Assembly: GCA_015134415.1 (NCBI GenBank)
Contig: CP043985.1
Location: forward strand, 155,983-219,982
DNA: 64,000 nucleotides
Direction of reading: 5' to 3'
From: Candidatus Stammera capleta
Lineage (GTDB): Bacteria; Pseudomonadota; Gammaproteobacteria; Enterobacterales; Enterobacteriaceae
Shown here: positions 1-63,999 of the stretch, in pieces
Layout: every line of letters starts with the position of its first letter
Numbering within the stretch: position 1 is the stretch's first letter
The notes under the pieces: generated by a model
Told to the model about the DNA's origin: nothing
Database searches by the model: none
The model's input: only the letters and a program-made list of their open reading frames with translations
Made by a program: the position numbers and the translations under genes

Positions 1-431
1 AAATTTTAATTCCTACTGAAGAAGTAATTGAAATAAAAAATGGAATTAAAAAAAAAAGTAAAAAAAAGTTTTTTCCTGGTTATTTTTTAATTAATATGGT
101 AATGACTAATGAAAATTGATATTTAATTCGTAATATACCTAAAATAGTTGGTTTTATTGGAGGTGATTTAGGAAATCCATTTCCTGTTAGTGAAAAAGAA
201 ATTAAAATTATTAAAAATAAATTAAATAAAATAGTTGGTAAACCTAGACCTAAAATTTTATTTGAATATGGTGAATTAATTAGAATTAATAATGGTCCTT
301 TTTGTGATTTTAGTGGAACAGTTGAAGAAATTGATTATGATAAAAATCGTTTAAAAGTATCTGTTTTAATATTTGGTAGATCTACTCCTGTAGAATTGGA
401 TTTTTCTCAAGTAGAAAAAAATAATTATTAA
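1..431 (+). CDS. nusG: Transcription antiterminator NusG, C-terminal part (5' end outside window; reading frame starts at nt 3)
   Basis: Open from the window edge to TAA at 429-431. ...[31 protein letters not shown]...[42 protein letters not shown] matches the NusG KOW/C-terminal region. The in-frame TGA at 115-117 falls on the conserved Trp. It sits directly upstream of rplK, as in nusG-rplKAJL-rpoBC. Confidence 0.92.
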
Positions 432-449
432 TATTTAAAAAAAAATAAA

Positions 450-878
450 ATGTCTAATAAAAAATATACATATATAAAATTACAAGTTTTATCTGGAATG
501 GCTAATCCAAGTCCACCTGTAGGACCTATTTTAGGTCAAAAAGGTGTTAATATTATGCAATTTTGTAAATTATTTAATAAAAAAACTTCTAATTTAGAAA
601 AAGGTATTCCTATACCAGTTATAATAAAAGTTTATTCTAATCATAGTTTTGATTTTTTTATTAAAAGTCCTCCAGTATCTTATTTAATTAAAAAAAAATT
701 ATCTATTAATTTTGGTTCTAAAAAACCTGGTCATGATATTATTGGTAGTATTAAAAAATCTTCTATTTTAGAAATTGCTAAAATAAAATTTTGTGATATG
801 AATAGTTGTGATTTAAATTCTATTTATAAATCAATTATTGGTACTGCTATTTCTATGGGAATTAAAATTAAAGATTAA
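450..878 (+). CDS. rplK: 50S ribosomal protein L11
   Basis: 142-aa ORF. ...QVLSGMANPSPPVGPILGQKGVNIMQFCKLFN... is the L11 N-terminal signature. Its position between nusG and rplA fits. Confidence 0.96.
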   Translation: MSNKKYTYIKLQVLSGMANPSPPVGPILGQKGVNIMQFCKLFNKKTSNLEKGIPIPVIIKVYSNHSFDFFIKSPPVSYLIKKKLSINFGSKKPGHDIIGSIKKSSILEIAKIKFCDMNSCDLNSIYKSIIGTAISMGIKIKD

Positions 879-884
879 ATTATT

Positions 885-1532
885 ATGAATATAAATAAAA
901 ATAAAAAAAAAATTATTAAAATATTTAATTTAATAAAAAAAAATTCTAAAAGAAAATTTAATGAATCTATAGATGTTGATATAAATTTATTATTAAATAA
1001 TAAAGATATTAATCAAATTATATGTGGAAGTGTATTATTACCTTATAGAAAAAAAAATAAAAAAAAGATAGTTGTATTTACTGATGAATCAAATTTTAAA
1101 ATTGCTTATAAATCTGGTGCTTTTTTTGTAGGAAATGATGATTTATTTAATAAAATTAAAAATAATGAAATTGAATATGATTTAGTTATTTGTAGTTGTA
1201 ATTATATTAATGTTGTTAGTAAATTAGGATATATATTAGGTCCTAAGGGGTTAATGCCTAATTTAAAATTAGGTACTATTACTAATGATATAAAAAATAC
1301 TGTTTCTGAATTTGTGGATGGTAAAATAATATATAAAACTGATAAATATGGAATTATTCATTTAAGTATAGGAAATGTTAATTTTTCTGTTAAAAAATTA
1401 TTTTCTAATTTTTTTTATTTAATAAATTCTATTTTATTAAATAAGTTAAATAAAATTAATAATAATTTTTTAATTAAGAAAATTAGTATATCTAGTACTA
1501 TGGGAAAAAGTTATATTATTAATTTAAATTAA
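885..1532 (+). CDS. rplA: 50S ribosomal protein L1
   Basis: 215-aa ORF. ...LGPKGLMPNLKLGTITNDI... and the overall layout match L1. Synteny rplK-rplA-rplJ is kept. Confidence 0.93.
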   Translation: MNINKNKKKIIKIFNLIKKNSKRKFNESIDVDINLLLNNKDINQIICGSVLLPYRKKNKKKIVVFTDESNFKIAYKSGAFFVGNDDLFNKIKNNEIEYDLVICSCNYINVVSKLGYILGPKGLMPNLKLGTITNDIKNTVSEFVDGKIIYKTDKYGIIHLSIGNVNFSVKKLFSNFFYLINSILLNKLNKINNNFLIKKISISSTMGKSYIINLN

Positions 1533-1551
1533 ATATTTTATAGGATTATTA

Positions 1552-2446: not shown

Positions 2447-6472
<4,026 letters not shown>

Positions 6473-6508
6473 ATATATTTATTATAAATTTTTTAGGAAT
6501 TTTTACTT

Positions 6509-10720
<4,212 letters not shown>

Positions 10721-10726
10721 ATATAT

Positions 10727-11737
10727 ATGATTATTAAAAAAAATATTTTTAGTGCTATACAACCTACAGGAAAATTAACTATAGGTCATTATATTGGGGT
10801 ATTAAAAAATTGGTTATATTATCAAAATAAATATAATTGTTTTTTTTGTATAGCTGATATGCATGCATTAACTGGTATAAAAAATAAAATTAAAATTAAA
10901 AATAATATTTATGATTTATTATCTATAATATTAGCTGTTGGAATAAATCCAATGAATTGTACTATTTTTTTACAATCTAATATTATAGAGCATATAAAAC
11001 TTTATTGATTATTAAATTGTTATACTTATATAGGAGAATTAAATCGTATGACTCAATTTAAAGATAAAATTAAAAATAAAAATAAAAATAATAACATAAA
11101 TTGTGGTTTGTTTAATTATCCTATATTAATGTCTTCTGATATATTATTATATAATACTGATTATGTTCCTATTGGATATGATCAAATACAACATTTAGAA
11201 TTAACTAGATTAATTGCTAAAAGGATTAATAAAATTTATTCTAAAAATATATTTAATATTCCTAAATATATTTTAGCAAAAAATGGTTCTAAAATAATGT
11301 CTTTATGTAATCCTTATAAAAAAATGTCTAAATCAGATATTAATAAAAATAATATTATTTTTTTATTAGATAGTTCTATTAAAATAAAAAATAAAATTAA
11401 TAATGCATTAACTGATTCTCAGTATCCCCCTAAAATATTATATAATAAAATTAAAAAACCTGGTATATCTAATTTATTAGATATATTTTCTAGTATAAAA
11501 AATATTTCTATTTATAAATTAGAAAAAAAATTTATTAATTTTTCATATAATAAATTTAAAAAAGAACTTATATTTGAATTAATTTTATTTTTAAAAAAAA
11601 TAAAAAAAAATTATATTTTTTTTAGAAAAAAAAAAAATTTTTTAAAAAAAATTTTATTAAATGGTAAATTAAAAGCTAGAAAAATAGCTAAAAAAAATAT
11701 TTTACATATATATAAAAATATTGGTATTAATTATTAA
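10727..11737 (+). CDS. trpS: Tryptophan--tRNA ligase
   Basis: ...FSAIQPTGKLTIGHYIGVLKNW... (HIGH-type), ...[23 protein letters not shown]... with TGA at 11006-11008 on the conserved Trp, and KMSKSD. A TGG Trp codon is also used at 10811-10813. The product is 336 aa. Confidence 0.96.
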
Positions 11738-11739
11738 AT

Positions 11740-12396
11740 TTATCATAATATAGGTTTTCTTTTATTTTTTATTAAAAAAATATTAGTTTTTTTAAAGTGA
11801 TTACAATTTCAGAATCCTTTTTTAAAAGAGAATTTAGAAGGATGAGAAGAGGTTAATATTAAATTTTTATTTTTATTAATTAATCTTTTTTTTTTTTGTG
11901 CAAATTTACCTCATAGTAAGAATACTATATTATTATTATTATATTTATTTATATATCTAATTATATTATCAGTAAATATTTCTCATCCTATATTTTTGTG
12001 AGATAAAATTTTTTTGTTTTCTACAGTTAGAATACTATTTAATAATAAAATTCCTTGTTTAGCCCAATTTAATAAATAACCATTTTTAGGAATTTTAAAT
12101 TTAGGATATTCATTTTTTATTTCTTTATATATATTAATTAATGATGATGTAATTTTTTTTATATTAGGTAATAAGGAAAATGCTAATCCATGTGATTGAT
12201 TTTTATTGCAATATGGATCTTGACCTATAATTACTACTTTTATATTTTTAAATTTTGTAATTTTAAATGCTTCAAAAATATTTTTTTTTTGTGGATATAT
12301 TTTTTTATATTTATATTCTTTTTTTAAAAAATATTTCATTTTTATAAAATATTTTTTTTTTTTTTCATTTTCTATAATTTTTTTTCAATTTATCAT
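11740..12396 (-). CDS. ung: Uracil-DNA glycosylase
   Basis: ...VVIIGQDPYCNKNQSHGLAFS...LLLNSILTVENKKILSHKNIG-W-EIFTD...FLLWGKFAQKK...SSHPS... match Ung motifs. The N-terminus extended to ATG at 12394-12396 (MINWKKIIENEKKKKKYF...) aligns with the E. coli N-terminus. Several in-frame TGA codons occur. It overlaps the era 3' end by 7 nt. Confidence 0.93.
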
Positions 12397-13241
12397 TTAT
12401 TTTTTACATGTATAAATAATTTTATTTTTTTTTTATAATTATAATATTTTATAATATCTATTTTAGATAAATTATTTATATATTTTATATTTTTACCTAA
12501 TTTTCCTATTATGATATTTTTATGATTTTTTTTTTTAGTATATATATTACAAAATATAATTTTTTTTTTTTTTAAATTTATTATTTTTTTTATTTTTATT
12601 GATATTAAATAAGGTATTTCTTCTCTTATAAATTTTAAAATTTTTTCTTTTATTATTTCTTTAATTATAAATTTTATATTATGTATTGTTTTAATTTTTT
12701 TATTAAAATAATGTTTAGATTTAATTAAAAAATTATTTATTATATTTTGTAAATATTTTATATGTTTTTTTTTTTTAGTAGTTATTGGTATAATATTTTT
12801 ATATATTATATTATTTTTAAACTTTTTAATAAAAGGAAGTATTAATTTTTTATTTTTTATTTTATCTATTTTATTAATTAATATTAATATTGGTATTTTT
12901 TTAAAGTTTATTTTTTTTATTATTTTTTTTTCATAAAAAAAATTTTTATTTTCTATAATTATTATTATTAAATTTATTTTATTTTTTAAATTATTTTTAT
13001 TTAAAAAATTATATGTTTTATAGAATATTTTTTTAAAATTTGTATAATTATTAAATCCAGGGGTATCAATATATATATATTGATTATTTTTTATTGTATT
13101 TATACCTAAAATGTATTTTTTAGTAGTATTTTTTCTTTTTGAAATTATAGATATTTTTTTATTTATTAATTTATTAAATAAAGTAGATTTTCCCACATTA
13201 GTTCTTCCTATTATAGAAATATAAATACATTTTTTTTGCAT
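12390..13241 (-). CDS. era: GTPase Era
   Basis: G1 IIGRTNVGKSTLFN and G3 DTPG motifs, and a position after rnc as in rnc-era. The ORF-track stop at 12393-12395 is TGA and is followed at once by TAA at 12390-12392. Confidence 0.9.
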
Positions 13242-13932: not shown

Positions 13933-14808
13933 TTAAATAATTTTACCTATTCTATTAAATCTTATATTTATTGGTAAATAATTTTTTTTTTTTTTAATAC
14001 TCATTCATATAAGTTCAGCTTTTCCTATAATTAAATTTTTATGTACAAACCCTCAGTATCTACTATCTTTACTATTATCTCTATAATCTCCCATAACAAA
14101 ATATTTGTTTTTAGGTACAATTCATATTTTATTTTTTTTTTTATATTTATTTTTATATGGAATTAATAATATTTTATATTTTTTATTTTTAATATATTCT
14201 GTTTTTTTTATTAAAAATATTATTTTTGAAAATATTTTTTTATTTAAATTAATAAAATTTATATTTTTTATTTTTAAAAAATTTTCATATATATTGTTAT
14301 TATTATCTATATATATTTCTTCTACTGAATTATTTAATTTAGTATTTTTATATTTTATTATATTTTTTTTATTATATTTTTTTTTATTTTTATTATATTT
14401 ATATATACTAATTTTTTTATTTTTTTTATTATATATAATTTTATCATTTGGTAAAGCAATTATACGTTTTATATAATATATTTTTTTGTTTTTTGGATAT
14501 TGAAATACAATTATATCTCCATATTTTGGAGTATTTATATTTAGAATAGTTTTATTAGTAAATGGGTTTTTTATATTATATTTAATTTTATTTACTAATA
14601 TCATATCTCCAATTAATAAATTTGGTAACATTGAAGCTGATGGAATTTTAAAAGGTTCATAAATAAAAGATCTAAATATAAATATAAATATTAATATAAA
14701 AAGATTATCAATTATATTATTAAAATGTTTTTTTTTATATAATTTATTATATATTAATATTGTAATATTAATTAATATTAATATAAATAATATTTTGTTA
14801 TATATCAT
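13933..14808 (-). CDS. lepB: Signal peptidase I
   Basis: ...PSASMLPNLLIGDMILVNK... (catalytic Ser box). After read-through of TGA at 14122-14124 it continues ...VMGDYRDNSKDSRYWGFV.... lepA-lepB-rnc-era synteny is kept. Confidence 0.93.
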
Positions 14809-14809
14809 A

Positions 14810-16612
14810 TTAAAAATTTTTTTTTAATGCTTCAAAATATATATTTGGTGATATTAATATATTTCCTATTTTTTTTAATTTTTTTTTTCCTCTTTTTTGT
14901 TTTTCTAATAATTTTTTTTTTCTTGTAATATCTCCACCATAACATTTTGAAGTTACATTTTTTCTAAGAGATTTAATTATAGATGAAAAAATAATTTTAT
15001 TATTATATTTTGATTGAATTTTAATTTCAAATTGTTGTTTTTTTAAATTTTTTTTTATTATATTTATTATATTTATACTATATTTTTTTATGTTTTTTTT
15101 ATGTATTAATATTGAAAATCCTTCTAGTTTATTATTATTAATTAAAAATTCTAATAATTTAATATCTGATTTTTTATATTTTTCAAATTTATATTGAAAT
15201 GAAGCATATCCTTGTGTTATTGATTTAATAATATTACTAAAATTTGTTATTATTTCATAAGTTGGTAATTCATATTTTAAATAAATATAATTATTATTAT
15301 AATATAATATTTTTTTTTGATTTCCTCTTTTGTTAATACATAAATTTATTATTTTTCCACAATATATTTTTGGTGTAATTATTTTACATGTTGATATTGA
15401 TTCATGTATTTCTTTAATTTTATTTTTTTGTGGTAATTTATTTGGATTTTCTATATATAAAATTTTATTTTCTTTAGTTATTATTTTATATAATATTGTT
15501 GGAGAAGTTATTATTATTTTTAAATTATATTCTCTTTCTAATCTTTCTTTTATAATTTCTATATGTAAAATTCCTAAAAAACCACATCTAAATCCATTTC
15601 CTAATAAATAGGAATTTTCTGGTTTAAAAATGAAAGAATAATCGTTTAAACTTAATTTTTCAATTGATTTTTTAAAATATAAAAAATTTTTATTATTTTC
15701 AGGATATATACTAGCATATATTTGTGGTGTTATTTTTTTAAATTTAGATATTTTAATTAAATTATTATTTTTATAATTTGTTATTATTTTTCCTATTGGA
15801 TTAAAATATTTTGTTATTTTTATATTACAAGAAATTCAACCTATTTCTCCACAATATAAATTATTAATATTATTTTTATTTGGAGTATATATATGTATTG
15901 TTTTTATACGATAATTATTTTTTTTAAAATTTATTATTTTGATAATATCATTTTTTTTAATGTTTCCATTAATAATTTTAATTAATAAAAAAATTCCTAA
16001 ATAATTATCAAAATATGAATCTATTATTATTGCTTGTAAAGGTAAATTTGTATGTCCTTTAGGATAAGGTATTTTATTAATAATTTTTTTAATTATATTT
16101 TTTATTCCTATCCCTTTTTTACTAGAACATAATATTATTTTTTTTTTTTTAATTTTTAAAATATTATTTATTTGATTTTTTATATTTTTTATATCATTAT
16201 ATAAAACATCAATTTTATTTATTATAGGTATAATTTTTATATTTAATTTTTTTGCTATATTATAATTTGTAATTGTTTGTGATTGTATACCTTTAGTAGC
16301 ATCTATTAGTAATAAAGCACCATCACATATATATAATGATCTTGATACTTCATTATTAAAATCTATATGTCCTGGTGTATCTATTAAATTTAATTTATAT
16401 TTTTTATTATTTAATTTATATTTAAGTGATACGCTTTGTGATTTTATTGTTATTCCTCTTTCCTTTTCTATTTCCATTGAATCTAAAATTCTAGAATTTT
16501 TTTTATTTATTTTTTTTCCAGTACATAATTCTATTATACGATCTGATAATGTTGATTTTCCATGATCTATATGAGCTATTATAGAAAAATTTCTTATATA
16601 TTTTTTTTTCAT
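14810..16612 (-). CDS. lepA: Elongation factor 4 (LepA), 600 aa
   Basis: N-terminus IRNFSIIAHIDHGKSTLSDR, DTPGHIDF and NKID. The C-terminal ...GGDITRKKKLLEKQKRGKKKLKKIGN... is in the same frame (length divisible by 3, E. coli about 599 aa). The gene is interrupted only by TGA. Confidence 0.95.
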
Positions 16613-16711
16613 ATACTTTAATTATATTTTATATTATAAGTTTTATAAAATAAATGTATTATAATAAGATTATATAATTATAATATATAAATTTAATTTT
16701 TTAAAAAAAAT

Positions 16712-19816: not shown

Positions 19817-20001
19817 AATTATATATAAATATTTATTAATTTATATTTTAAAAATTTTTATATATAAATTATTTTTATTTTTATTTTTAATTTATTATAT
19901 AATTTTATATTTAATATTTTAATTATTGTTTATATATATTATAAAATAATAATAATATAAATTTATATTATCTATAAAAATTTTTAAAAAAAAATAATAA
20001 A

Positions 20002-21539: not shown

Positions 21540-21614
21540 TTTTTTTACCATTTATTTAAAAAAATATATTTTTATATTATTATATACATATATTTTATAT
21601 TAAATATATATATT

Positions 21615-21620: not shown

Positions 21621-21627
21621 TTAATTT

Positions 21628-34117: not shown

Positions 34118-34133
34118 TTTTATACCAAAAAGA

Positions 34134-35478: not shown

Positions 35479-35501
35479 AATTTTTACCTATTAATTTATT
35501 A

Positions 35502-41317: not shown

Positions 41318-41324
41318 TAATTTT

Positions 41325-44300: not shown

Positions 44301-44798
44301 AATAGTATATTAAAAGAATTTGATTTTTTTTTAAGTATAAATAAAATAAATTTTTTAAAATATAATAATATTATTAAAAAATATGATAAAATTTCATATT
44401 TATGTGATGATTTAAATATAAAAAATTCTATTAAAGGGTATTTAAATGGTGTTATAGATTTAATTTTTTTTTATAAAAATAAATATTATATTATTGATTA
44501 TAAATCTAATTGATTTGGTAATAATATTTTATATTATAATAAAAATAATATTATAAATAATATAATTTTAAGAAGATATGATATTCAATATCAAATATAT
44601 TCTATTGCTTTACATAATTATTTAAAATTAAATATTAATAATTATAATTATTCTACTAATTTTGGGGGTATATATTATATTTTTTTAAGAGGTTTATTTA
44701 TTGAAAATAATTATAGATCTTATAATGGTATTTTATATATTAAACCTAATGAAAAATTAATTTTAAAATTAAATAATTTATTTAAAAATGGAAATTAA
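41325..44798 (+). CDS. recB: Exodeoxyribonuclease V beta subunit RecB (1157 aa), helicase and nuclease motifs intact
   Basis: Walker A LIEASAGTGKTNIL, motif II IDEFQDTDFLQY, ...GDPKQSIYTFRGA..., and the nuclease motif GYLNGVIDLIFFYKNKYYIIDYKSN-W- (E. coli GFIDLVF...YYLLDYKSNW). Track ORFs 41325, 42735 and 43665 share one frame. Confidence 0.95.
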
Positions 44799-44800
44799 TT

Positions 44801-46690: not shown

Positions 46691-47446
46691 TTAATATATA
46701 TATAATATATTTTTATTTAAAATTATTAATAATAATATTTTTAAATTAATTCAATCTATATTAATATTTTTTTTAATATTTATTTCATTTTTTTTTATTA
46801 AATTTAATATTTTTTTAATTTCAGAATTATTATATTTATATAAATTTTTTATAAAATATTTAAATAAAATATTTAATAATATTATTTTAATATAGTTTTC
46901 ATTTTTAATTTTATCTATTATATATAATATTTTTTCTATTTTTTTTTTATAAATTAATAAAATTATATTTTTAATATAATTATAATTACTATATTTATAA
47001 TAAAAGATATCATTTTTATAATTAATTTTATTTTTATTACATATTATTATTAGTATGTTTTTTTTTTTTAAATATATTTTATCTATATTATTAAAATCAT
47101 AATTTATTATTATATATATATTATTATTTTTGTTTATTTTTTTTAATATATTATTATATATATAATTATTTATTTTATTTATTTTTTCTATTATATTTAT
47201 AATAAGTAATTTTTTGTTTGAAAATAAACTTTTATTTATTAAAATATTTTTTAATTTACTTCATTTATATTTATTATCTATTATAATATTTATAATATTA
47301 TTTTTTTTCATAAATAATAATATTTTTTTTTTTATATATATTTTACAATTTTGTTTATTTATATAATCATTTCCCATTATAAAAAAAATTTTATATTTTT
47401 TATTTATATTTATATTTTTTAATTTATAAAAATATATTTTTTTCAT
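46691..47446 (-). CDS. holA: DNA polymerase III delta subunit (short, about 251 aa; 3' end uncertain)
   Basis: It lies directly (3 nt) downstream of leuS, as in leuS-lptE-holA. The N-terminus MKKIYFYKLKN...YKIFFIMGNDYIN...DNKYK-W-SKLKNILINKSLFSNKKLLII parallels E. coli HolA (...YLLLGNDPLL...DW..IF.....SLFA...LL). The C-terminal half is very degenerate. Confidence 0.7.
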
Positions 47447-47449
47447 ATA

Positions 47450-49927
<2,478 letters not shown>

Positions 49928-49997
49928 TTTATTTATAATTTTATTTTATTACTATTTTTATGTATTAATATATAATATATTTTGTATATTATATTTT

Positions 49998-51533
49998 TTA
50001 AAAAAAAATTATTCTATTTTTAATATTATTAAATATTTTTTTTTTATTAAAATTTTTATTTAATGAATATTTTTTATTAAAATATTTATTTTTTTTCTTT
50101 ATTCTTAATATAGAATAATTTGGTATTTTAATATTTTTATCTAAAATAATTATTATTTTAATTATTTTTTTTTTTTTATTTTTTATTAAATATGTATTAT
50201 TTTTTTTATTTTTTAATAAATATTTACCCATATTAATAGGTACTTTAACATGTATTTCTTTAGTATCTTTTTTATATGATTTTTCTTCTATAATTTTTAA
50301 TATAGAATTTAATATAGATTTATTATTTCTTATATTACCAGATCCATTACATTTTGGACATATATAATAATTTGATTTTATAAAAGAATTATTTACTCTT
50401 TGTCTTGACATTTCTAATAAACCAAATTTAGATATATATCCTATATGTATTTTTGCTTTATCTTCTTTTATTATATTTTTAAAATTATTTTCTACAATTT
50501 TTTGGTTTTTAATTGATATCATATCTATAAAATCTATTACTATTAATCCTCCTATATTTCTTAAACGTAATTGTCTTATTATTTCTTCAGAAGCTTCTAA
50601 ATTTGTTTTTAAAGCTGTGATTTCTATATTTAATCCTTTTGTATATTTTGAAGAATTTATATCTATTGATGTTAATGCTTCTGTAGTATCAATAATTATT
50701 GATCCTCCTGAAGGTAATGTTATTTTTCTTTTATGTATTAATTCTATTTGTTTTTCTATTTCAAAATAATTAAATAATGGTATTTTTTTTTTATATAAAT
50801 TTATTTTATTTTTGAATTTACTTTTATCTATTTTTTTAATATACTTTATTACTAATTTATATATATTATAATTATCTATTAATATTTCATCTATATTTTC
50901 ATATAAATAATCTCTTAATATTTTTGTTAATAAATTATTTTGCTTATATATTAAACATGGTTTTTTTTTTTCATTTACTATTTTTTGTATTTTACGTCAT
51001 TTTTTTATACTTAATTTTAAATCTAATTTTAGTGATTTTAATGATTTATTTATACTTGATGTACGTATTATAATTCCCATATTTTTTGGTAAATTTAGTT
51101 TTTTTATAATTAATTTTGTTTTATATCTATTTTCTCCAGTTATTTTTTTTGATATACCAATTAATTTAGGATTATTTGGCATTAATATTAAATTATCTTT
51201 TATTATTGTAATAAATGTAGTTAAAAATGCACCTTTATTATTTCTTTCTTCTTTATTTATTTGTACTATTAATTCTTGACCTTCATATAAATTGTTTTTT
51301 AAATATTTTTTTGATATTTCTTTTATAGGTAAAAAACCATTTTTTTTTTCTCCATAATTTACAAATACTGCTTCTAATCCTGGTTGTATTTTAGATATTA
51401 TTCCTTTGTATATATTTAATTTTTTTTGTTTATATTTTTTATTTTCTATATTTAAATCATATAATTTTTTATTTTTTATTAAAGCTATACGTAATTCTTT
51501 TTTTTCTGTAAGATTAATTAAAATTTTTTTCAT
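49998..51533 (-). CDS. rne: Ribonuclease E, catalytic N-terminal half only (511 aa)
   Basis: MKKILINLTEKKELRIALIKNKKLYDLNIENKKYKQKKLNIYKGIISKIQPGLEAVFVNYGEKKNGFLPIKEI... parallels the E. coli Rne N-terminus, and the Zn-link CPKCNGSG is present. It ends at a true TAA and is divergent from rluC, as in E. coli. Confidence 0.93.
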
Positions 51534-51621
51534 TATTATTCTCTAAATTTTTTTATATTTTATTAAAGTTATTTTTATTAAAATAATAGTTTATTGTTAA
51601 ACAATTATTTATAATAATTAT

Positions 51622-52551
51622 ATGGTTAAAGATTTTTTTTTAAATTTTATTAAAGTTAATATTAATAGTGTAAATCAAAGAATTGATAATTATTTATTTA
51701 AAATAATTAAAATTTTACCTAAAAGTAAGATATATTCTTTATTACGTAAAGGAAATATTAGAGTAAATAAAAAACGTATTTCTCATAATTATAGATTAAA
51801 AATAAATGATATAATTAGAATTCCTTTAATAAATATTAAAAAAAAAGAAATATATATTGATAAATATATCATAGATAAATTTAAAAAATATATTATCTAT
51901 GAAGATAAATATATTTTAGCTATTAATAAACCTTATGGTATTTCTGTTCATAAAGGTAGTAAAATTAATTTAAATATCATAGATATTTATAGATCTATTT
52001 ATAAAAATGAAAATTTTTTAGAATTAGTTCATCGTATTGATAAAAGTACTTCTGGTGTTTTGTTAATATCTAAAAATTTAAATATATTACGTTATTTACA
52101 TAAAGATTTTAAAGAAAATAAAATTAAAAAAAAATATATAGCTTTAGTTCATGGGATTTGACCAAGTAATTTTAAGAAAATAGAAAATTATATATCTAGA
52201 AATAGATATATTTCTTATATTACAAGAAATTTTAATAATGGTAAATTATCTAAAACTTTATTTTCTGTAAATAAATATTTTAATCAATATACTTTATTAG
52301 ATATTATTCCTCTTTCTGGAAGAAATCATCAAATAAGATTACAAACTAGTTATTTAGGTTATCCAATAGTTGGAGATAATATTTATGGTAATAAAAAGAT
52401 AAATTATTTATTTTTTAAAAAATTTGGAATAAAAAGATTATTTTTACATTCTTATTTTTTATCTTTTTTTCACCCATTTTATAAAAAAAATATAAAATTA
52501 TGTGCTAATTTAAATAATGATTTTTTATTAATTTTAAGTAATTTAATTTAA
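51622..52551 (+). CDS. rluC: 23S rRNA pseudouridine synthase RluC
   Basis: An S4-like N-terminus (...QRIDNYLFKI...LLRKGNIRVNKKR...) and the catalytic ...FLELVHRIDKSTSGVLLISK.... ...YIALVHGI-W- matches E. coli YLALVRGQW. The product is 309 aa. Confidence 0.9.
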
Positions 52552-53073: not shown

Positions 53074-53176
53074 TATAATTTTTACTTTATTAGAAATTTA
53101 ATAATATACATATATATGTTAATGTACTAATAGTAAATATTATCAATAATTTTATTAATCTGGATATTATATTCAG

Positions 53177-54589
53177 GTTAATAAAATTTATTGTTAATTT
53201 TTTAGTTATATAATTTAATATTAAAATCATTGTTATGGAAGATAATATTATTTTGAAAAATATTTTTCTTCATTTATATTTAAAATTTATTATTTTTTTT
53301 TTTTTTAATTGTAAATATAATATAAATATATTTATATAATAAGATAAACTTATAGATAAAGATAATCCTGAATGTTTAAATATTTTAATAGTAAAAATAT
53401 TTAGTATTTGTGTAATTATTAATGTAAATATTGCTATATTATTTAGTATATTATTATTATTCATAGAATAAAAACATGGTGTTAGTATTCTAATTATTAT
53501 TAATGGTAATAATCCTATTGAATAAGTTATTAATATTTTTGATGTCATAATTACATCAATAAAATTAAACTTTCCATATTTAAATAAAGTTATTATTAAT
53601 ATTTTAGATAAATATATTAATATAATTGATATAGGTATACTAAATAATAATGTTATTTTTAAGTATTTATTTATTATTTTATTACATTTTTTTTTATTTT
53701 TATTATGAAAATTTTTAGATAATTTAGGTAATAATATTGTACTTGTTGTATTACCTAATATACTTACTGGTAATTCTAATAATTTATCTGCATAATATAT
53801 TCATGATATTGAACCTGATTTAAAATATGAACATATATTATTATTAATAATTTGAGATGTTTGATATATAGATATTTCAAATATAATTGGAATAATATTT
53901 TTTATTATTTTATATATATTTTTATTATGTATATTTAAAATATTAAATTTTATATTTAAATATATATTTTTTATGCTTATTTTTTGAATTAATAATTGTA
54001 TTATCCCTCCTATTATTATAGATCATGCTAAAGAAAAAATTGTAGATTTAAAATATTTATTTATGAATAGTATATATAATATAATTATTATATTTAATAT
54101 AATTGGTGAAAAATTTGGTATTAAAAACATATCTCATATATTTAATATAGATGATATATATGATGTTAATGATATTAATATTATATATGGAAATGTAATT
54201 TTTAATAATTTATCTATTGTTTTTAATTTTAAATTATTTTTAAAAAATCCAGGTGATATTATATATATAATATTTTTAGAGAAATTTATACCTAATATAG
54301 TTATTATTATTAATATAAAAAATAATACAAAATATATTGATGAAATTAATTCGATTATTTTTTTTTTAGTTTTTTTTTCTTTATATTTACTTAATATTGG
54401 TATAAATACATATGAAAATGCTCCTTCTGCGAATATTCTTCTTAACATATTTGATATTTTAAATACAGTATAGAAAGCATCTGTTTTAAAATTTATACCA
54501 AATTTATTTGCTATTATTATATCTCTTATAAAACCTATTATTTTAGATATAAATATTAAACAACTTATTTTTATAATATTTAATAACAT
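53177..54589 (-). CDS. murJ: Lipid II flippase MurJ (MviN), about 470 aa
   Basis: The N-terminus ...[56 protein letters not shown] parallels E. coli MurJ ([56 protein letters not shown]). It is multi-pass and hydrophobic throughout. The tail after TGA at 53270-53272 is uncertain. Confidence 0.9.
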
Positions 54590-54719
54590 ATTATTATTTT
54601 AAAGATTATAATTTTTATTAATATTTTAAGTAATTAATTTTAATTTAATTATTTTATATTTTATTTTAAAATAATTATTCTTATTTTAATATTATTATAT
54701 ATAACATAATATTATTATT

Positions 54720-55121
54720 TTAAGTAATTTTTTTTTTTAAATAAAATATAATAGATTTAAATCCTAAAATTTTAGAATTTAATATTTTTTTAAATGAATA
54801 TATTTTTTTAAATATATTATTGATATTTTTTTTTACATATATATTTTTCTTTTTATTTAGAATTATAATTATTAATGATAAAACTCCTTTAATAATTAAT
54901 GAATCACTGTCACCATTTAAATTTATTATATTATTTTTATTTTTTATATTTAATCAAACATTAGTTTGGCATCCATATATTATATTATTTTGATAACGTA
55001 TATTTTTGTTTTTTAATGGTAGTTTTTTTCCTAATTCTATTAAATATATTAATTTATCTTTATATTTTTTTAATAAATTTATTTCTTTAAATATTTTTTT
55101 TTTAAATAATAAATTTTTCAT
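54720..55121 (-). CDS. sufE: Cysteine desulfuration protein SufE
   Basis: 133 aa. ...IIYGCQTNV-W-LNI...GDSDSLIIKGVLSLI... carries the SufE active-site Cys context. It lies 1 nt downstream of sufS. Confidence 0.88.
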
Positions 55122-55122
55122 T

Positions 55123-56355
55123 TTATTTTATTAATTTAATAATTTTTTTTAATCTATATATAAACATATTAATATCTTTTTTTGAAGTATACATAGCAAT
55201 AGATATTCTACATATTCCTGATATATTATATAATTTTATTGTTGGTATAGCACATTGATTACCTGTTCTAATAAATATTCCTTGTTGATCAAGTAACATA
55301 CCTATATCATAAGAATGTTGGTTTTTAATATTAAATGATATTATACTTATTTTTTTTTTATAACCATATATTTTAATTTCAGGAATATTTTTTAATTTAT
55401 TTAATATATATTTAATTATTTTTTTTTCATAATTTATAATATTTTTTATTCCTATTTTATTTATATAATCTATAGCATTTCCTAATCCTATAATAGATTC
55501 TATGTTTGGAGTTCCAGCTTCAAATTTTCATGGAGAGTTTATAAATTGTATATTATTTATGTTATATTTTTTTATATCTATATTAGATATTATTCCTCCT
55601 CCTGATTTTCATATTTCAAGATTATCTATATTTTTTTTTTTACCATATATTATTCCAACTCCAGTTGGAGCATACATTTTATGTCCTGAAAATATATAAA
55701 AATTACAATCAATTTTTTGTACATTTATTTTTAAATGTGATATTGCTTGTGAACCATCTATTATAGATATTATATTTTTTTTTTTAGCTATTTTTATTAT
55801 TTTTTCTATAGGATTTTTAATACCTATTACATTAGATATATGAGTAATAGATATTATTTTAGTATTTTTGTTAATTATTTTTTTTAAATGATTTATATCT
55901 ATATAACCTTTTTTATCAATTTTTAATATTTTTAGTTTAAATTTAATTTCTTTAGATAATAAATATCAAGGAATTATATTTGCATGATGTTCTATTATTG
56001 AAATAATTATATTATTTTTTTTTTTTATATTTTTTTTAGTTAAACTATATGATAAAAAATTAAATGATTCTGTACTATTATTTGTAAATATTATTTCTTC
56101 TGGAGATTTTGCGTTTATAAATTTTGCTATTTTAATTCTTATATCTTCTATTTTATTAGAATTTATATTACTTAATGTATATATACTTCTATTAATTGAA
56201 GAATAATAATTTTTATAAAATTTGGTTTGGTTATTTATTACAATTTTTGGTTTTTGAGATGTAGAGGCATTATCTAAATATATTATTCTTTTATTGTTTA
56301 TTTTTTTTTTTAATATTGGAAAATCTAATCTTATTTTTTTTATATTATAATTCAT
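55123..56355 (-). CDS. sufS: Cysteine desulfurase SufS (410 aa)
   Basis: The N-terminus ...IRLDFPILKKKINNKRIIYLDNASTSQKPKIVI...EHHANIIP-W-... is SufS/CsdB-like. Start and the C-terminal ...YTSKKDINMFIYRLKK are in one frame. It sits in sufBCDSE order. Confidence 0.93.
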
Positions 56356-56356
56356 T

Positions 56357-57334
56357 TTATTTATATTTATTTAATATTATTTTATATATTTTTTTGCTTA
56401 TTATTTTATTTTTTATTTTTTTTATTATATCATTAATAAATATTATAAAAATTATTTTTTTTATTTTATTTTTATTTAAACATCTACTAGATAAATAAAA
56501 ATATATTTTTTTATCAATATTATTAATTGTTACTTTATGTTTGCATTTAGTTTTTTTATTTTTAATATTTAATTGAGGTTTTGTAAAAATAAAATTTGGT
56601 TTATTAAAATATAAATTATTATTTTCTAATATTGCAATTGAATTATTTGCTTTTTTAAGTATTGTTATTATACCAATAAATTTTATTATTCCAGAAGATA
56701 ATATTATATTTTTGTGTTTTTGATAACTTTTTGAATTAGATTTATTGTGAATAATATTTATTTTATAAAAAATATTATTTTTTTTTTTAATCATAGAAAT
56801 ATTATTTATGTTTATAACAGAATTTTTATATAAATTTACTTTGTTTTTAATAGATATTTTTTTTGAATTAATTAGAAAAATATTTTCATAAAATTTAGAA
56901 TTTTTTTTAATTTTAATATTTTTTTTACATAAAAATTTAATTTTTTTATTTAAATTAATTATTTTAAAATAATTTAATATTATATTTTTATGTAATTTTA
57001 TATTATATCTATAATTTATATATTTATTATTACAATTATTATATATATAATATTCTTCTATAAGAGTTATATTATTATTATTTTTAATTTTTATATTTAT
57101 ATTATATTTTTTTTTATTTATATATTTATTTTTATAAATATATATTATATATATAGGAATATTTTTATTTTTTAGTTTATATATTATTATATTTATTTTT
57201 TTTTTTTTTTTTAGAATTATTAATTTTATATTTATTAAATTATTTATATTTTTATTTTTATATATTTTTTTATTATTTAAAATAATAATTTTAATTAATT
57301 TTATTTTTATGTTTTTTTTTAATAAATTTTTCAT
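56357..57334 (-). CDS. sufD: Fe-S cluster assembly protein SufD (short, 325 aa)
   Basis: It lies between sufC and sufS. The C-terminal ...LENNNLYFNKPNFIFTKPQLNIKNKKTKCKHKVTINNIDKKIYFYLSSRCLNK... parallels the SufB/D signature (...TKPELEI.ADDVKCSHGAT.G.ID..QLFYL.SRGI). The ATG at 57334 overlaps the sufC 3' end by 44 nt. Confidence 0.85.
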   Translation of the reverse strand: MKNLLKKNIKIKLIKIIILNNKKIYKNKNINNLINIKLIILKKKKKINIIIYKLKNKNIPIYIIYIYKNKYINKKKYNINIKIKNNNNITLIEEYYIYNNCNNKYINYRYNIKLHKNIILNYFKIINLNKKIKFLCKKNIKIKKNSKFYENIFLINSKKISIKNKVNLYKNSVININNISMIKKKNNIFYKINIIHNKSNSKSYQKHKNIILSSGIIKFIGIITILKKANNSIAILENNNLYFNKPNFIFTKPQLNIKNKKTKCKHKVTINNIDKKIYFYLSSRCLNKNKIKKIIFIIFINDIIKKIKNKIISKKIYKIILNKYK

Positions 57335-58074: not shown

Positions 58075-59463
58075 TTAATTATTAAATAAATTATATTCTA
58101 ATTCTAAAGAATGTTCTATAGGTAACATATTTAATATTTTTTTACAAAAACCATTTATAATCATATATTTTGCATTTTTTTTATTTATACCTCTTTGTAA
58201 TAAAAAAAATATTTGTTCTTTATTTATATAAGATGAATATGCTTCATGTTCGATATTACAATATTTACTTTTTGATTGTATACATGGTATTGTATATGCA
58301 GAAGAATTTTTATTCATTATTAATGAATTACATTGAGTAAAATTTTTAGATTTTATTGATGATTTATTTATTTTTACTATACTTCTATGTGTATTTCTAC
58401 TATTATCTTTACAAATACTTTTAGCTAAAATTATAGATTTTGTTTTTTTTCCTATATGTATCATCTTTGTTCCTGTATCTGCTTGTTGATTTAATTTTGT
58501 TATAGATAAAGAATAAAAATTACCTATAGATTTATTTCCTAATAATATTGCACTAGGATATTTTCATGTTATATTTGCTCCTTTTTCTATTTGTACTCAA
58601 GATATTTTACTATTATTACCTTTACATAAAGCTCTTTTTGTTACAAAATTATATATACCTCCTTTTTTTAAATTTCCTGAAAATCAATTTTGTATAGTAG
58701 AATATTTTATTTCTGCATTTTTATATAAAATTATTTCTACGACTGCTGCATGTAATTGATTTTTTTTTCTTTCTGGAGATGAACATCCTTCAGTATAATT
58801 TAAATAACTATTTTTTTTTAAAATTATTATAGTTCTTTCAAATTGTCCTATATTTTTAGCATTTATTCTAAAATATGAAGATAAATTTATTGGACAACAA
58901 GTATTTTTAGGAATATATATAAATGTTCCATCTGATAATACTGCTGTATTTAATGAAGAAAAAAAATTATCATTTATTGGTACTACTTTACAAATATATT
59001 TTTTTACTAATTTTGGATATTTTTTAATAGCTTCATTAATAGAACAAAATATAATTCCTAATTTTAAGAGTTTTTTTTTATAAGTTGTTTTTATTGATAT
59101 AGAGTCTAATATTGCATCTACAGCTAAATTATTTATATTTTTTTTTAAAGGAATTTCAAGTTTATTAAAAGTTTTTTTTATTTTTTTATTAAGTATTTTT
59201 TTATTATTTATTTTTGGAATAGAATAATATATAATTTTTTTATAATTTATTTTTTTATATTTTCCATTAAATCATTTTGGTTCTTTCATTTTTCTTCATA
59301 TATTAAACGCTTTTAATCTTAAATTAAGCATTCATTTTGGTTCTTTTCTTTTTTTTGATATTTTTATTATATTCTTTTTATTTATTCCTTTTTTAATATT
59401 ATAATTTTTTATATTTGTTTTAAATCCTTGTTTATATATATATTTTTGTTTTTTTTTTGACAT
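58075..59463 (-). CDS. sufB: Fe-S cluster assembly scaffold SufB (462 aa)
   Basis: The C-terminal ORF ...KNFTQCNSLIMNKNSSAYTIPCIQSKSKYCNIEHEAYSSYINKEQIFFLLQRGINKKNA...GF... is SufB-like. The N-terminal MSKKKQKYIYKQGF... and ...YTEGCSSP... are joined in the same frame through TGA codons. Confidence 0.93.
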
Positions 59464-59865
59464 TTTATATTAAATTATTATATTTTTTTAAAAAATTTTA
59501 TTTATATTATTTAAAGTGATATTAATTATACTTAATAAAAATTTTTATTAAAATATTTAAAAAATTAATAAAATATTATTATATATTAATAATAAATTTA
59601 AATATATTATTATAATATTTTTAAAAATATTTTTATTTTTTATAAGTATTAATTTTAATAAAAATTATTTTTTATTTTTATTATTTTATTTAGTTATTTT
59701 TTATGTATTTTTAAAATTATTTTTATTTATCAAATAAAATATTTTTTTAATATTATTTCTTAAATTTATAATTTATTATTATAATTTTGTAATATATATA
59801 TTATAATATATATGTATATTATATATTTATTTATAATATTTTTAATAATTTTTATAATTTATAAT

Positions 59866-60294
59866 ATGTTTATTATTTCTTTTGATTTTGGAATGAAAAA
59901 TATAGGTATTGCTATAGGTCAATTTTATACTAAAACAGCTAATCCTTTAATTTCAATAAATGCAAAACAAGGAATTCCAATAAATTGAATGGATATAAAA
60001 AAAATATTAGATATTTGGTTAATTAAAATTGCTGTTATTGGATATCCTTATTATTATAATATTAAGAATAATAATTGTAAATTAATTAAATTATATATAA
60101 GAAAATTTGCAAATAATTTAATTAATAAATTCAATTTACAAATTTTTTTTTCAGATGAAAGATTTACTTCTTGTGATGCTAGAAATTTTATAAGTAATAA
60201 TTTTAAGTTATATAATTCATTTTATTCAAATTATAATATTCATACTATTTCTGCTGTAATAATTTTAGAAAGATGATTAAAATTAAATTCTTAA
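59866..60294 (+). CDS. ruvX: YqgF/RuvX putative pre-16S rRNA nuclease (Holliday-junction-resolvase-like)
   Basis: [41 protein letters not shown]-...IAVIGYP...[28 protein letters not shown]...[10 protein letters not shown]- parallels E. coli YqgF (LLAFDFGTKSIGVAVGQ...ARKFANRI...HDERLST.EAR...SAVIILE). Its 3' end overlaps convergent rluD by 4 nt. Confidence 0.92.
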
Positions 60295-61244
60295 ATATAT
60301 CTTTTTTTTTCCATTCTTAACCAAAAAATTATATTTAATATATCTTTAGGAAGATTACAATTAATAACTATTTTATTTTTATTTATTGGATGTTTAAATA
60401 TTAATGTTGTTGCATGTAAAGCTTGTCTATTTAATTTTTTTATTTTATTTTTTATTAATTTTGAAATTTTTTTTTTATTAGTTATTTTTTTTGTTGTATA
60501 TATTTTTTCCCCTACTATTGGATGATTTATATAGTTCATATGTAATCTAATTTGATGAGTTCTACCAGTTTCTAATTTAATTTCTAATAATGTAAAAAAA
60601 TTAAATTTTTCTAGTACTCTAAAATAAGTAATTGCTTTTTTACCATTTTTTTCTACAGACATTATTTTTCTATTATATTTATTTCTTTTTATATATGTTT
60701 TGATAATACCTAATTTTTTTTTAATATTACCATATACTAAAGTTTTATATATACGAATTATTTTTCTTTTTTTTATTTTTTTAATTAATTTTTTATAACT
60801 ATTTTTTTTTTTTGCTATTATTAATAACCCAGTTGTATCTTTATCCAATCTATGTACTATTCCTCATCTTGGAATTTTATTATATATATTAGGATATAAA
60901 TATATTAATTTATTTATTAATGTATCATTTAAATGACCTGCTCCCGGATGTATAATTATATTTTTTTTTTTATCTATTATTAGTAAATATTTATCTTCAT
61001 AAATTTTATTTATTTTAATATTTTTATTTTTTTTATATATATATGTATCTTCTTTTATAATTATTTTTATTATATCTTTAGGAAAAATTTTTGTATTATT
61101 TTTATTTACTATTTTATTATTTAAGTAGATTTTTTTATTTTTTATTAATTTTTGTATTTTATTTCTTGAATATTTTTTTATTTTTTTTGATAAAAATATA
61201 TCTATTCTTTTATTAAAATGTTTATTTTTTATAATTAGAAACAT
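60291..61244 (-). CDS. rluD: 23S rRNA pseudouridine synthase RluD
   Basis: ...[51 protein letters not shown]...ETGRTHQIRLHM... parallels E. coli RluD (VHPGAGNPDGTVLNALLHYYP...[22 protein letters not shown]). Two track ORFs are joined by one TGA. Confidence 0.92.
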
Positions 61245-61271
61245 ATTTATTTATTTTTTTTATTTATATTT

Positions 61272-62669
61272 TTATTTACCTATACAAAATTTTGAAAATA
61301 TATTTTTTATAATATTTTGCGATAAAATTTTATTTTTTCCTATAATTTCACATAAAAATTTTTGTGTTTCAAATAAATTTTCATATATTAAATCTAAATT
61401 TATTTTTTTATTTAAATAATATGTTTTAATTAATTTTTTTATTTTTTTAAAATTATTTAAACTTAATTTAATTAACTTAATATGTCTTTTTTTTGTTAAG
61501 AAATTACTTTTATTGTTTTTATTTTTTACTTTTTTTTTAATTACTTTTATTATTTTATTAATTCCAATTTTTTTTTTAATTGATATATTTAATATTATAT
61601 ATTTTTTTTTTTTGATAATATTAAATTTTTCATTTGTTAAATCTATTTTATTACGTAATAATATATGTATTTTTTTTTTTCTTTTTATTTTATTTAATAT
61701 TTTTTTTTTATAATATTTTATAATATTTTTTTCAGATATTTTGTATGAGTTTTCTATAAATATTATTATATTTGATTTATTAATTTCTTTTCATGTTTTT
61801 TTAATTCCTATTTTTTCTATTTTATTTTTTGTATTATGTATTCCTGCTGTATCTAATATTTTGAAATTTTTGTTATTTATTTTTATATTTTCTTTTATTA
61901 TATCTCTTGTAGTTCCTTTTATATTTGTTATGATTGATGTATTATTTAATGTTAAAAAGTTCATTAAACTTGATTTTCCAACATTTGGTTTACCTATAAT
62001 TATTATTTTATTTTTATTATTATTTAGTAAATTTTTTTTAGTATTTATATATAATTTTTTAATTTTTCTATGAATTTTTATTATTTTTTTTTTTATATTA
62101 TTTACAATATTTGTATTAATTTCTTTTTCTGAAAAATTTATTTCTTTTTCTATATTAATTAAATTGTTTTTAATAATTTTTATTATTTTTTTAATTTTAT
62201 TAGAAAATTTTCCTTTAAAAGATTGTATAGCTGAAAAAATTTGATTTTTAGAATTTGAATATATAAGTTCTTTTATAGATTCTGCTTGAATTAAATCTAT
62301 TTTTTTATTTATAAACGCTCTTTCGGTAAATTCTCCTGCATATGCTATTCTTACATTTTTTATTTTTAATTTTATTATAGATTTTATAATTAATTCTATT
62401 ATTTTTTGACCCCCATGACTATGAATTTCTAAAATATCTTCTCCAGTAAATGAATTAGGTTTTTTAAAATATATAATTATTCCATAATCTATAATTATAT
62501 TATTTTTATTTTTTATAGGTAAATATGTTGCATATCTATTTTTTGTTATTTTTCCTATTATTATTTTAGATATTTTTTTTACTTTATTTCCTGATATTCT
62601 TACTATCCCTATCCCCCCATATCCTATAGGAGTAGATTGAGCTAATATAGTGTCTTTTATATTATTCAT
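61272..62669 (-). CDS. mnmE: tRNA modification GTPase MnmE (TrmE), 465 aa
   Basis: The N-terminus ...DTILAQSTPIGYGGIGIVRISG...FTGEDILEIHSHGG...AGEFTERAFINKKIDLIQAESI..., the G-domain GKPNVGKSSLMN...DTAG, and the diagnostic C-terminal ...FCIGK motif just before TAA. Confidence 0.95.
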
Positions 62670-63029
62670 TATTTTTTGTTATTTTTTATATATTAATTAA
62701 TTAATAAATATAATATTAATATATTATTAAATTTAATATAATAATAATATTATTATATTTATTTTTTATTATTATTTTTATATATTGTTATAAATTATAT
62801 TTATAATAATTAATGATATTTATTATATTTTTATAAATTATTTACTTATAAATTAATTTTATGTTTTAAAATTATTTTATTTTTTTAGTATAATATATTA
62901 TATGTAAAATTAAAAATTAATATTTTTATTTTTTAATAATGATAAATTTAAAATATATTAGTTATATTTTTTATTTATATTAAATATTTTATATTTTTTT
63001 TAACTTTTTATTTTTTATATTTTATATTT

Positions 63030-63383
63030 TTATATATAATATTTTTTTCAAATTTTTTTGAAGTAATTAAATATATTTTTTTTTTTTAATAATAATATAT
63101 TTTTTTTTAAAATTATTAAATAATTTAATTTTTTTATTTTATATTGGTTTATTCTAAATGTTTCTAATATTATTCTTTTGTATTTATTTCTTAATGTAGA
63201 TAATTTTATATATTTTTTTTTTATTAAAGTAGCTATTTTAGGACTTTTATTTTTATTATGTAAATATTTTATTATTATATATTTATATATATTTATTTTA
63301 ATATTATTTTTTTTTTTATAAATTTTATTGAAATATTTTATTTTTATTTTTTTTTCTTTTGTAAGAGATAATTTTTCTTCCAT
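63030..63383 (-). CDS. rnpA: RNase P protein component
   Basis: ...[39 protein letters not shown]... parallels the RnpA RNR motif region (...AHERNRIKRLTRESFRL...DFVVVAKK). It is downstream of and overlapping rpmH. A TGA at 63048-63050 is followed by 5 codons, then TAA. Confidence 0.85.
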
Positions 63384-63459
63384 TTTTAGTTTTCATTCTT
63401 TTTCTAAAACCATGTTTACGTTTTTTTTTTATATTTGATGGTTGAAATGTTCTTTTCAT
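63325..63459 (-). CDS. rpmH: 50S ribosomal protein L34
   Basis: [32 protein letters not shown]... parallels E. coli L34 ([31 protein letters not shown]). It is 44 aa and below the ORF-track cutoff. It overlaps the rnpA start by 59 nt in another frame. Confidence 0.93.
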
Positions 63460-63850
63460 ATTTATATTTTAAATTATTTTTAGTTTAAATTATTTTTAAT
63501 AATATTTTATTTTTATTATAAATAAATATTTAATTAAAATAAAATATTATTAAAATATGAGTTTAACATGTGAATGATATTATTACAAGTTGTTTAATAA
63601 TAAATTAATTATTTTTTATTTATATTAATTTAATATCATAATTTATGTAATTAATTAATTTATTTATTATATTATATTAATAAATATATTTTTAAATATT
63701 TTAAAATATATAAAAATTTATTTAAATATAAAATATATTTTAGTTAAATTTTAATTTGTTAAAATTAAATATTATTATATTTATAATATAATTGATAATA
63801 TTATAATATAAAATTTAATAATTTATTAGAAATAATATTAAAGTGTAAAT

Positions 63851-63999
63851 ATGCATTTTATAATAGAAAAAGAAAAAATTGTTATTTTATTAAGTAAGTT
63901 TAATACATATATAGGTAATTCTTTAAAAAATCCAATTTTATCAAATATTTTATTAATTTTAAAAGGTAATAAATTGATTTTTATAGTAACTAATTTAGA
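63851..63999 (+). CDS. dnaN: DNA polymerase III beta sliding clamp, 5' end (runs off window), with an apparent -1 frame break at 63958-63964
   Basis: MHFIIEKEKIVILLSKFNTYIGNSLKNPILSNILLIL matches the DnaN N-terminus (MKFTVEREHLL...LPILGNLLLQV). The expected continuation KGNKLIFIVTNLD (E. coli ..DGTLSLTGTDLE) is in the -1 frame from 63961. The zero frame hits TAG at 63983-63985. Confidence 0.85.
   Translation, partial: MHFIIEKEKIVILLSKFNTYIGNSLKNPILSNILLILKGNKLIFIVTNL

Follow-up and report, generated by a model that had tools for sequence, protein, structure and literature searches.

UGA as a tryptophan codon in a 64-kb stretch of the Candidatus Stammera capleta chromosome

A 64-kb stretch of contig CP043985.1 (the window) was analyzed with respect to the meaning of its in-frame TGA codons. 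Codon usage and alignments make it almost certain that the window is part of the approximately 245-kb chromosome of Candidatus Stammera capleta, in which UGA would be an ordinary tryptophan codon (translation table 4, or code 4) and UAA and, rarely, UAG would terminate translation. Within the window UGA appears to be translated as Trp, ends no gene and has replaced about 94% of UGG. Candidatus Stammera capleta is an extracellular, pectin-digesting digestive symbiont of cassidine (tortoise) leaf beetles. The reading of UGA as Trp is correct here but was already known for Stammera.

When the window was analyzed with TAA and TAG as the sole stops, 51 full-length genes were obtained that tile 93% of its length at a G+C content of 13.5%; two small ribosomal protein genes and one tRNA gene were present besides. 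The longest open reading frame (ORF) was 626 aa under table 11, compared with 1408 aa (rpoC), 1342 aa (rpoB), 1167 aa (recB) and 1080 aa (recC) under table 4. At least one in-frame TGA was present in 39 of the 51 genes (76%), with a maximum of 22 in leuS followed by 17 in recC. Table 11 broke these 39 genes solely at TGA, and no in-frame TAA or TAG was encountered. Fifty genes ended with TAA, one with TAG and none with TGA. Tryptophan was encoded by 148 TGA and 10 TGG codons (n = 158), a TGA share of 93.7%. A preliminary description of this DNA had stated that every break it checked was TGA, that each gene it could trace to its end stopped at TAA or TAG and that a standard-code annotation would call the window mostly pseudogenes, all of which was borne out. 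The TGAs it cited were in frame at rpoB 2993-2995 (YRGS-W-LDFEFD), rpoC 6596-6598 (IIKS-W-SYGEV) and 6842-6844 (AHI-W-FLKSLPS), trpS 11006-11008 (KLY-W-LLNCYTY), rplT 35296-35298 (minus strand) and recB 44511-44513 (DYKSN-W), and the TGG still in use at trpS 10811-10813 was in frame as well. For nusG, the TGA was in frame and its peptide context was right, but its position is 117-119 and not 115-117.

As a guard against circularity, in-frame TGAs were masked as X before alignment with the Escherichia coli K-12 orthologues. Tabulation of the aligned residues, as the preliminary description had suggested, placed an E. coli Trp opposite 114 of 124 aligned TGAs (92%), while Trp accounted for 1.05% of the E. 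coli residues aligned (n = 16,785). Conversely, the E. coli Trp columns held TGA 114 times and TGG 7 times. The assignment of TGA to Trp is far beyond chance. No TGA among the 124 was opposite Gly or Cys. No frameshifts were found across the full-length alignments to E. coli, and no table-4 ORF overran the C-terminus of its E. coli orthologue. In the codons for Lys, Glu, Gln, Leu(TTR) and Arg(AGR), A was the third base in 96-97.5% of cases, near the TGA share of Trp codons. The base 3' of TGA was A in 49%, T in 30%, G in 14% and C in 7% of cases, mirroring the overall distribution, and no nucleotide-context signal after TGA was found in the window genes. The near-neutral TGA share together with the lack of 3' context bias indicates that TGA acts as an ordinary sense codon near mutational equilibrium.

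The first part of the window (1-10857) was compared with CP144813.1, a metagenome-assembled genome of Candidatus Stammera capleta isolate DOCHLPPF (246,187 bp). The two were 95.0% identical at the nucleotide level over 10,868 aligned bases, and RpoB and RplK were 94% and 92% identical, respectively. Of 13 in-frame TGAs in nusG, rpoB and rpoC, 10 were TGA and three were TGG in CP144813.1; the latter corresponded to nusG 117, rpoB 2993 and rpoC 9713, the last of which faces Leu in E. coli. UGA and UGG thus behave as synonyms between close relatives. The ratio of nonsynonymous to synonymous substitution rates (dN/dS) between the two strains was 0.20 before and 0.21 after the first TGA of rpoB, indicating the same purifying selection beyond the apparent stop, and was 0.17 for rpoC. 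In the same comparison, for which the sister-locus positions were 9534-20396, most differences were of the G/A type: G to A and A to G changes on the coding strand numbered 186 and 174, with only 58 changes between C and T, a marked strand asymmetry; part of the G/A excess is expected because the region has a positive GC skew (G > C).

The exact table-4 products RpoB, RplK, RplL, AcpP and RpmI of the window strain were already present in NCBI, where the chromosome is 245,213 bp and sister contigs are 244,218, 245,958 and 246,187 bp, indicating that the public annotation of this genome already uses code 4. Code 4 in Stammera goes back to Salem et al. 2017, as cited in Table 1 of Shulgina and Eddy 2021 (PMC8629427) and in Manzano-Marín et al. 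2023 (PMC10540940), and a study of 50 Stammera genomes used code 4 for annotating all of them (bioRxiv 10.1101/2023.12.12.571295). The preliminary description had named mollicutes, Hodgkinia, Zinderia and Nasuia as the known cases and treated a gammaproteobacterial code 4 as unexpected; that part did not stand, Stammera having been a recognized code-4 lineage since 2017. Table 2 of PMC10540940 lists Stammera with prfB, the gene for release factor 2 (RF2), absent, a trnW that reads UGG (anticodon CCA), 15.4% G+C and UGA in 62% of coding sequences. In a 2026 survey of 49 Stammera genomes, tRNA-Trp(CCA) was present, tRNA-Trp(UCA) was absent and prfB was found in 15 of 49 assemblies; G+C was 13.9-20.4%, genome size 0.22-0.34 Mb and UAA 88-97% of stops (PMC13462651). 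A 2026 preprint described a basal clade of five Stammera genomes with code 11 and prfB, and some code-4 assemblies that still hold prfB. According to a 2026 paper in Nucleic Acids Research, the anticodon stem of the Stammera tRNA-Trp(CCA) has the usual 5 bp and that of Zinderia is a 4-bp variant. The window G+C and the 245,213-bp chromosome fit the published ranges, with G+C at the low end (13.5% in the window vs 13.9-20.4% for whole genomes). Since Stammera has CCA only and never UCA, a tRNA-Trp(UCA) is not universal for code 4. For the same reason, and because prfB is kept in 15 of 49 assemblies, some of them code 4, the earlier proposal that an intact prfB together with only tRNA-Trp(CCA) would speak against the recoding is invalid for Stammera.

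An extremely reduced, A+T-rich genome in which table 11 breaks 39 of 51 genes might also be expected if these were pseudogenes of a decaying genome and the TGAs true nonsense mutations. However, all breaks were TGA, without frameshifts or in-frame TAA or TAG, and 92% of the TGAs fell exactly on Trp columns. Furthermore, dN/dS remained at about 0.2 past the TGAs, TGA and TGG were swapped between strains, and the affected genes included the essential rpoB, rpoC and aminoacyl-tRNA synthetase genes. Pseudogenization, the probability of which is practically nil, was ruled out on the grounds of TGA-only breaks on Trp columns, intact frames and purifying selection beyond them. It is also extremely improbable that UGA stands for glycine (as in code 25), cysteine or selenocysteine instead of Trp, or that the mRNA is edited to UGG. 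Recoding of UGA to Gly and to selenocysteine occurs in other bacteria, and editing would not be visible in DNA alone, but bacteria are not known to have a system that edits UGA to UGG. Neither Gly nor Cys was opposite any of the 124 aligned TGAs. As for selenocysteine, 148 sites in 39 genes are incompatible with insertion dependent on a selenocysteine insertion sequence (SECIS), and tRNA-Sec and selB were not found in Stammera genomes (PMC13462651). Recoding to Gly, Cys or selenocysteine was accordingly ruled out by the aligned residues.

An ambiguous or transitional UGA, as proposed for Providencia siddallii PSAC, would be read mostly as Trp, with RF2 present and UGA still ending some genes or cutting yield. 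Such a state would agree with Stammera having tRNA-Trp(CCA) only and with prfB occurring in 15 of 49 assemblies although only five use code 11, so that some code-4 strains keep prfB. We nevertheless consider it unlikely for the window. None of the 51 genes ended in TGA, and with in-frame TGAs in 76% of the genes, as many as 22 of them in leuS, appreciable termination at UGA would be ruinous. The TGA share was near the neutral 96-97.5%, and neither a context bias nor C-terminal overshoot relative to E. coli was seen.

Several points weigh against the reading of UGA as an ordinary Trp codon. Ten of the 124 aligned TGAs were off Trp (Leu 3, Phe 3, Tyr 1, His 1, Lys 1 and Ala 1), i.e. seven opposite Leu, Phe or Tyr and three opposite His, Lys or Ala. 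prfB was found neither in the 64-kb window nor within the 9.5 kb preceding nusG in CP144813.1, where no ORF of release-factor length was seen either. No tRNA-Trp was found in the window by ARAGORN or Rfam, or in the sister locus of CP144813.1 by ARAGORN. The sole tRNA of the window was a tRNA-Ser (anticodon UGA) for UCN codons, and the sister locus contained tRNA-Leu, tRNA-Gln and tRNA-Met. For the way UGA is decoded and for the presence or absence of RF2 in the window strain, the basis is published surveys, in which 15 of 49 Stammera assemblies still have prfB.

From that literature, rather than from the window, the following course may be proposed for UGA as a Trp codon. RF2 would have been lost or disabled in the Stammera lineage, with prfB lost in most strains, so that UGA would no longer be read as a stop. 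The sole tRNA-Trp, with its unchanged CCA anticodon and normal 5-bp stem, would then have to read UGA by near-cognate C34-A pairing or through an uncharacterized modification. Extreme A+T mutational pressure, as in codon-reassignment models, would subsequently have turned nearly all TGG into TGA. Given the near-neutral TGA share and the lack of context bias, UGA decoding appears efficient. It is possible, though rather doubtful, that efficient decoding of UGA by a CCA tRNA needs an undescribed device (modification of C34, an alteration elsewhere in the tRNA body, or an adaptation of the ribosome or EF-Tu) and not simple misreading after RF2 loss. This question concerns the whole species and is not newly revealed by the window.

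The 9.5 kb upstream of nusG in CP144813.1 were tentatively read as the 3' end of dnaE, a peroxiredoxin gene, a tatD-like gene, a methyltransferase gene with an NPPY motif, miaB, phoH/ybeZ, ybeY, murB and secE. The methyltransferase ORF (293 aa; sister-locus 4293-5171, minus strand; about 4.4 kb upstream of nusG) was recognized by eye from its NPPY motif, which is typical of N5-glutamine methyltransferases of the PrmC/PrmB type. If it were PrmC, the release-factor methylase, the fact that it has been kept would bear on how a code-4 organism terminates translation.

The window strain matched Candidatus Stammera capleta (Gammaproteobacteria; Cassidinae symbiont; table 4) in species, in its use of UGA for Trp, in its very low G+C and in the predominance of UAA among its stops; it differs from known Stammera in nothing of substance and is one more strain. 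Among other tiny symbiont genomes, Hodgkinia cicadicola and Nasuia deltocephalinicola likewise use UGA for Trp, with UGA in more than 50% of genes (PMC10540940). In Hodgkinia (Alphaproteobacteria) and Nasuia (Betaproteobacteria), however, the tRNA-Trp anticodon is now UCA and prfB is wholly absent, whereas Stammera keeps CCA. Zinderia insecticola (Betaproteobacteria, 13.5% G+C, code 4) resembles Stammera in its retained tRNA-Trp(CCA) and extreme A+T content. The Zinderia tRNA has a 4-bp anticodon stem, which was proposed as a UGA-reading device; in contrast, the Stammera stem is of normal length (5 bp), which leaves UGA decoding in Stammera less well explained than in Zinderia. The leech symbiont Providencia siddallii PSAC and the basal Stammera clade with code 11 represent gammaproteobacterial steps toward UGA-to-Trp. 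In PSAC, which retains prfB, only about 20% of the genes contain UGA and some genes still terminate at it, compared with 76% of genes containing UGA and none ending in it in the window; the basal clade differs from the window strain in using code 11. The Mycoplasmatales and Entomoplasmatales share UGA as Trp and the loss of RF2 but belong to the phylum Bacillota and normally have tRNA-Trp(UCA).

The genes of the window with in-frame TGA were as follows; residues named as opposite a TGA are those of E. coli.

3..431, plus strand: nusG, 5' end cut by the window edge; TGA 117-119 opposite Trp; 59% identity to E. coli NusG.
2447..6472, plus strand: rpoB, 1341-1342 aa; 3 TGA (2993, 4871, 6269), all opposite Trp; 59% full-length identity to E. 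coli RpoB.
6497..10720, plus strand: rpoC, 1407-1408 aa; 9 TGA, 8 opposite Trp and that at 9713 opposite Leu; 65% identity to E. coli RpoC.
10721..11737, plus strand: trpS, E. coli orthologue; 1 TGA (11006-11008), 1 TGG (10811-10813).
11740..12396, minus strand: ung, E. coli orthologue; 5 TGA, 1 TGG.
12390..13241, minus strand: era, E. coli orthologue; 1 TGA.
13933..14823, minus strand: lepB; 3 TGA, each opposite Trp.
14810..16621, minus strand: lepA; 1 TGA opposite Trp.
16697..18121, plus strand: gltX; 4 TGA, 3 aligned, each opposite Trp.
18110..19840, minus strand: ligA; 2 TGA, opposite Trp and Phe.
20868..21551, minus strand: rpsB; 4 TGA, 3 opposite Trp and 1 opposite Leu.
21625..22371, plus strand: map; 1 TGA opposite Trp.
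22376..23101, minus strand: ORF of 240 aa; 1 TGA; no Pfam or E. coli match.
23080..24756, minus strand: glnS; 7 TGA, 6 aligned, each opposite Trp.
25512..26468, plus strand: RNase Z/BN-type metallo-beta-lactamase gene; 1 TGA; Pfam Lactamase_B_2 and tRNase Z domains.
26400..27017, minus strand: PAP2-family phosphatase gene; 4 TGA; Pfam PAP2, E = 7e-12.
27140..27685, plus strand: fldA; 3 TGA, each opposite Trp; 1 TGG.
29104..30483, minus strand: pmbA/tldD-family gene; 3 TGA; Pfam PmbA_TldD_3rd, E = 5e-56.
30541..31083, plus strand: ppa; 1 TGA opposite Trp; 2 TGG.
31130..31825, minus strand: Bax1-I (yccA-like) membrane protein gene; 3 TGA; Pfam Bax1-I, E = 3e-30.
31889..34144, minus strand: pheT; 4 TGA, 2 aligned, both opposite Trp.
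34134..35108, minus strand: pheS; 2 TGA, both opposite Trp.
35128..35487, minus strand: rplT; 1 TGA (35296-35298) opposite Trp.
36257..37498, minus strand: thrS, catalytic and anticodon-binding parts only; 6 TGA opposite Trp; aligned to residues 244-636 of the E. coli threonyl-tRNA synthetase (ThrRS) ORF.
38078..41317, plus strand: recC; 17 TGA, 15 opposite Trp, 1 Tyr and 1 Phe; 2 TGG.
41298..44798, plus strand: recB; 10 TGA, each opposite Trp, including 44511-44513.
44786..46672, plus strand: recD; 4 TGA, 2 opposite Trp, 1 Leu and 1 His.
46691..47449, minus strand: ORF of 251 aa, by its position next to leuS a putative occupant of the lptE/holA slot; 2 TGA; no Pfam or E. coli match.
47450..49945, minus strand: leuS, the densest gene; 22 TGA, 21 opposite Trp and 1 Lys.
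49998..51542, minus strand: rne, N-terminal catalytic half only; 1 TGA opposite Trp.
51601..52551, plus strand: rluC; 1 TGA opposite Trp.
53090..54598, minus strand: murJ; 4 TGA, each opposite Trp.
54720..55127, minus strand: sufE; 1 TGA opposite Trp.
55123..56370, minus strand: sufS; 3 TGA, each opposite Trp.
58075..59469, minus strand: sufB; 6 TGA, each opposite Trp.
59785..60294, plus strand: ruvX (yqgF); 2 TGA, 1 TGG; Pfam RuvX, E = 1e-26.
60291..61250, minus strand: rluD; 1 TGA opposite Ala; 1 TGG.
61272..62678, minus strand: mnmE; 1 TGA opposite Trp.
63030..63428, minus strand: rnpA; 2 TGA, 1 aligned, opposite Trp.

A BLASTP comparison with the ORFs of 13 E. coli K-12 regions yielded orthologues for 44 window genes, and Pfam was used for further genes. 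The order of genes was E. coli-like in nusG-rplKAJL-rpoBC, era-rnc-lepB-lepA, rpsB-tsf next to map, thrS-infC-rpmI-rplT-pheST, recC-recB-recD, leuS, the divergent rne and rluC, sufBCDSE, and rnpA and mnmE. The enterobacterial or gammaproteobacterial operon architecture noted in the preliminary description was confirmed by this collinearity, and its central claim of code 4 in a gammaproteobacterial gene set held in view of the gene order, the TGA-Trp alignments, the stop usage and the TGA/TGG swaps. RpoB identity was 66.5% to E. coli, 65.6% to Ca. Pantoea edessiphila, 61.9% to Thiotrichaceae and 60.3% to Hydrogenophaga. For RplK, the next-best genomes after Stammera were the Enterobacterales symbionts Ca. 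Pantoea edessiphila and Ca. Dasytiphilus stammeri (55-56%). A crude neighbor-joining tree of RpoB put Stammera on a long branch outside the E. coli/Pantoea pair; the long branch left the tree without resolution, and the tree did not enter the placement.

Several genes were shortened or lost relative to E. coli. The alignment of the thrS product (about 400 aa) with E. coli ThrRS began at about residue 244 of the latter and covered the catalytic and anticodon-binding domains, and the N-terminus of about 240 aa was missing; this N-terminal region of ThrRS includes the editing domain. No N-terminal remnant was detectable in the 580-bp upstream spacer (37499-38077; 10% G+C). Likewise, rne was shortened to the N-terminal catalytic half of about 511 aa, compared with 1061 aa in E. 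coli RNase E, and the C-terminal half, which is the degradosome scaffold, was absent. The ptrA gene was gone between recC and recB, the frames of which overlap (41298-41317). No recognizable lptE or holA was found beside leuS (46672-47450), just the 251-aa ORF, no sufA upstream of sufB (59469-59785), and no yidD or yidC between rnpA and mnmE (62678-63030). The 240-aa and 251-aa ORFs (22376-23101 and 46691-47449, both minus strand) were rich in Lys, Asn and Ile, each with in-frame TGA. A search of the larger intergenic gaps for genes turned up only rpmF and rpmH, both too short to pass the ORF length cut-off: an rpmF-like ORF of 57 aa (about 52550-52730, plus strand; E = 4e-13 against E. coli L32) and an rpmH-like ORF of 47 aa (about 63430-63580, minus strand; E = 5e-15 against E. 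coli L34). The spacers 24757-25511, 59469-59785 and 28950-29104 went down to 4-5% G+C, far below coding sequence, and Rfam at gathering thresholds found nothing in them. No genes for the pectinolytic enzymes of Stammera, polygalacturonase and rhamnogalacturonan lyase, were found within the window.

The window adds one example to a recoding that had already been documented. Annotation of this genome needs table 4, as table 11 would miscall three quarters of the genes as pseudogenes, including rpoB, rpoC, recBCD and six aminoacyl-tRNA synthetase genes. Published whole-genome surveys make Stammera a useful model, as it comprises a basal code-11 clade and code-4 strains with and without prfB, and has no tRNA-Trp(UCA).

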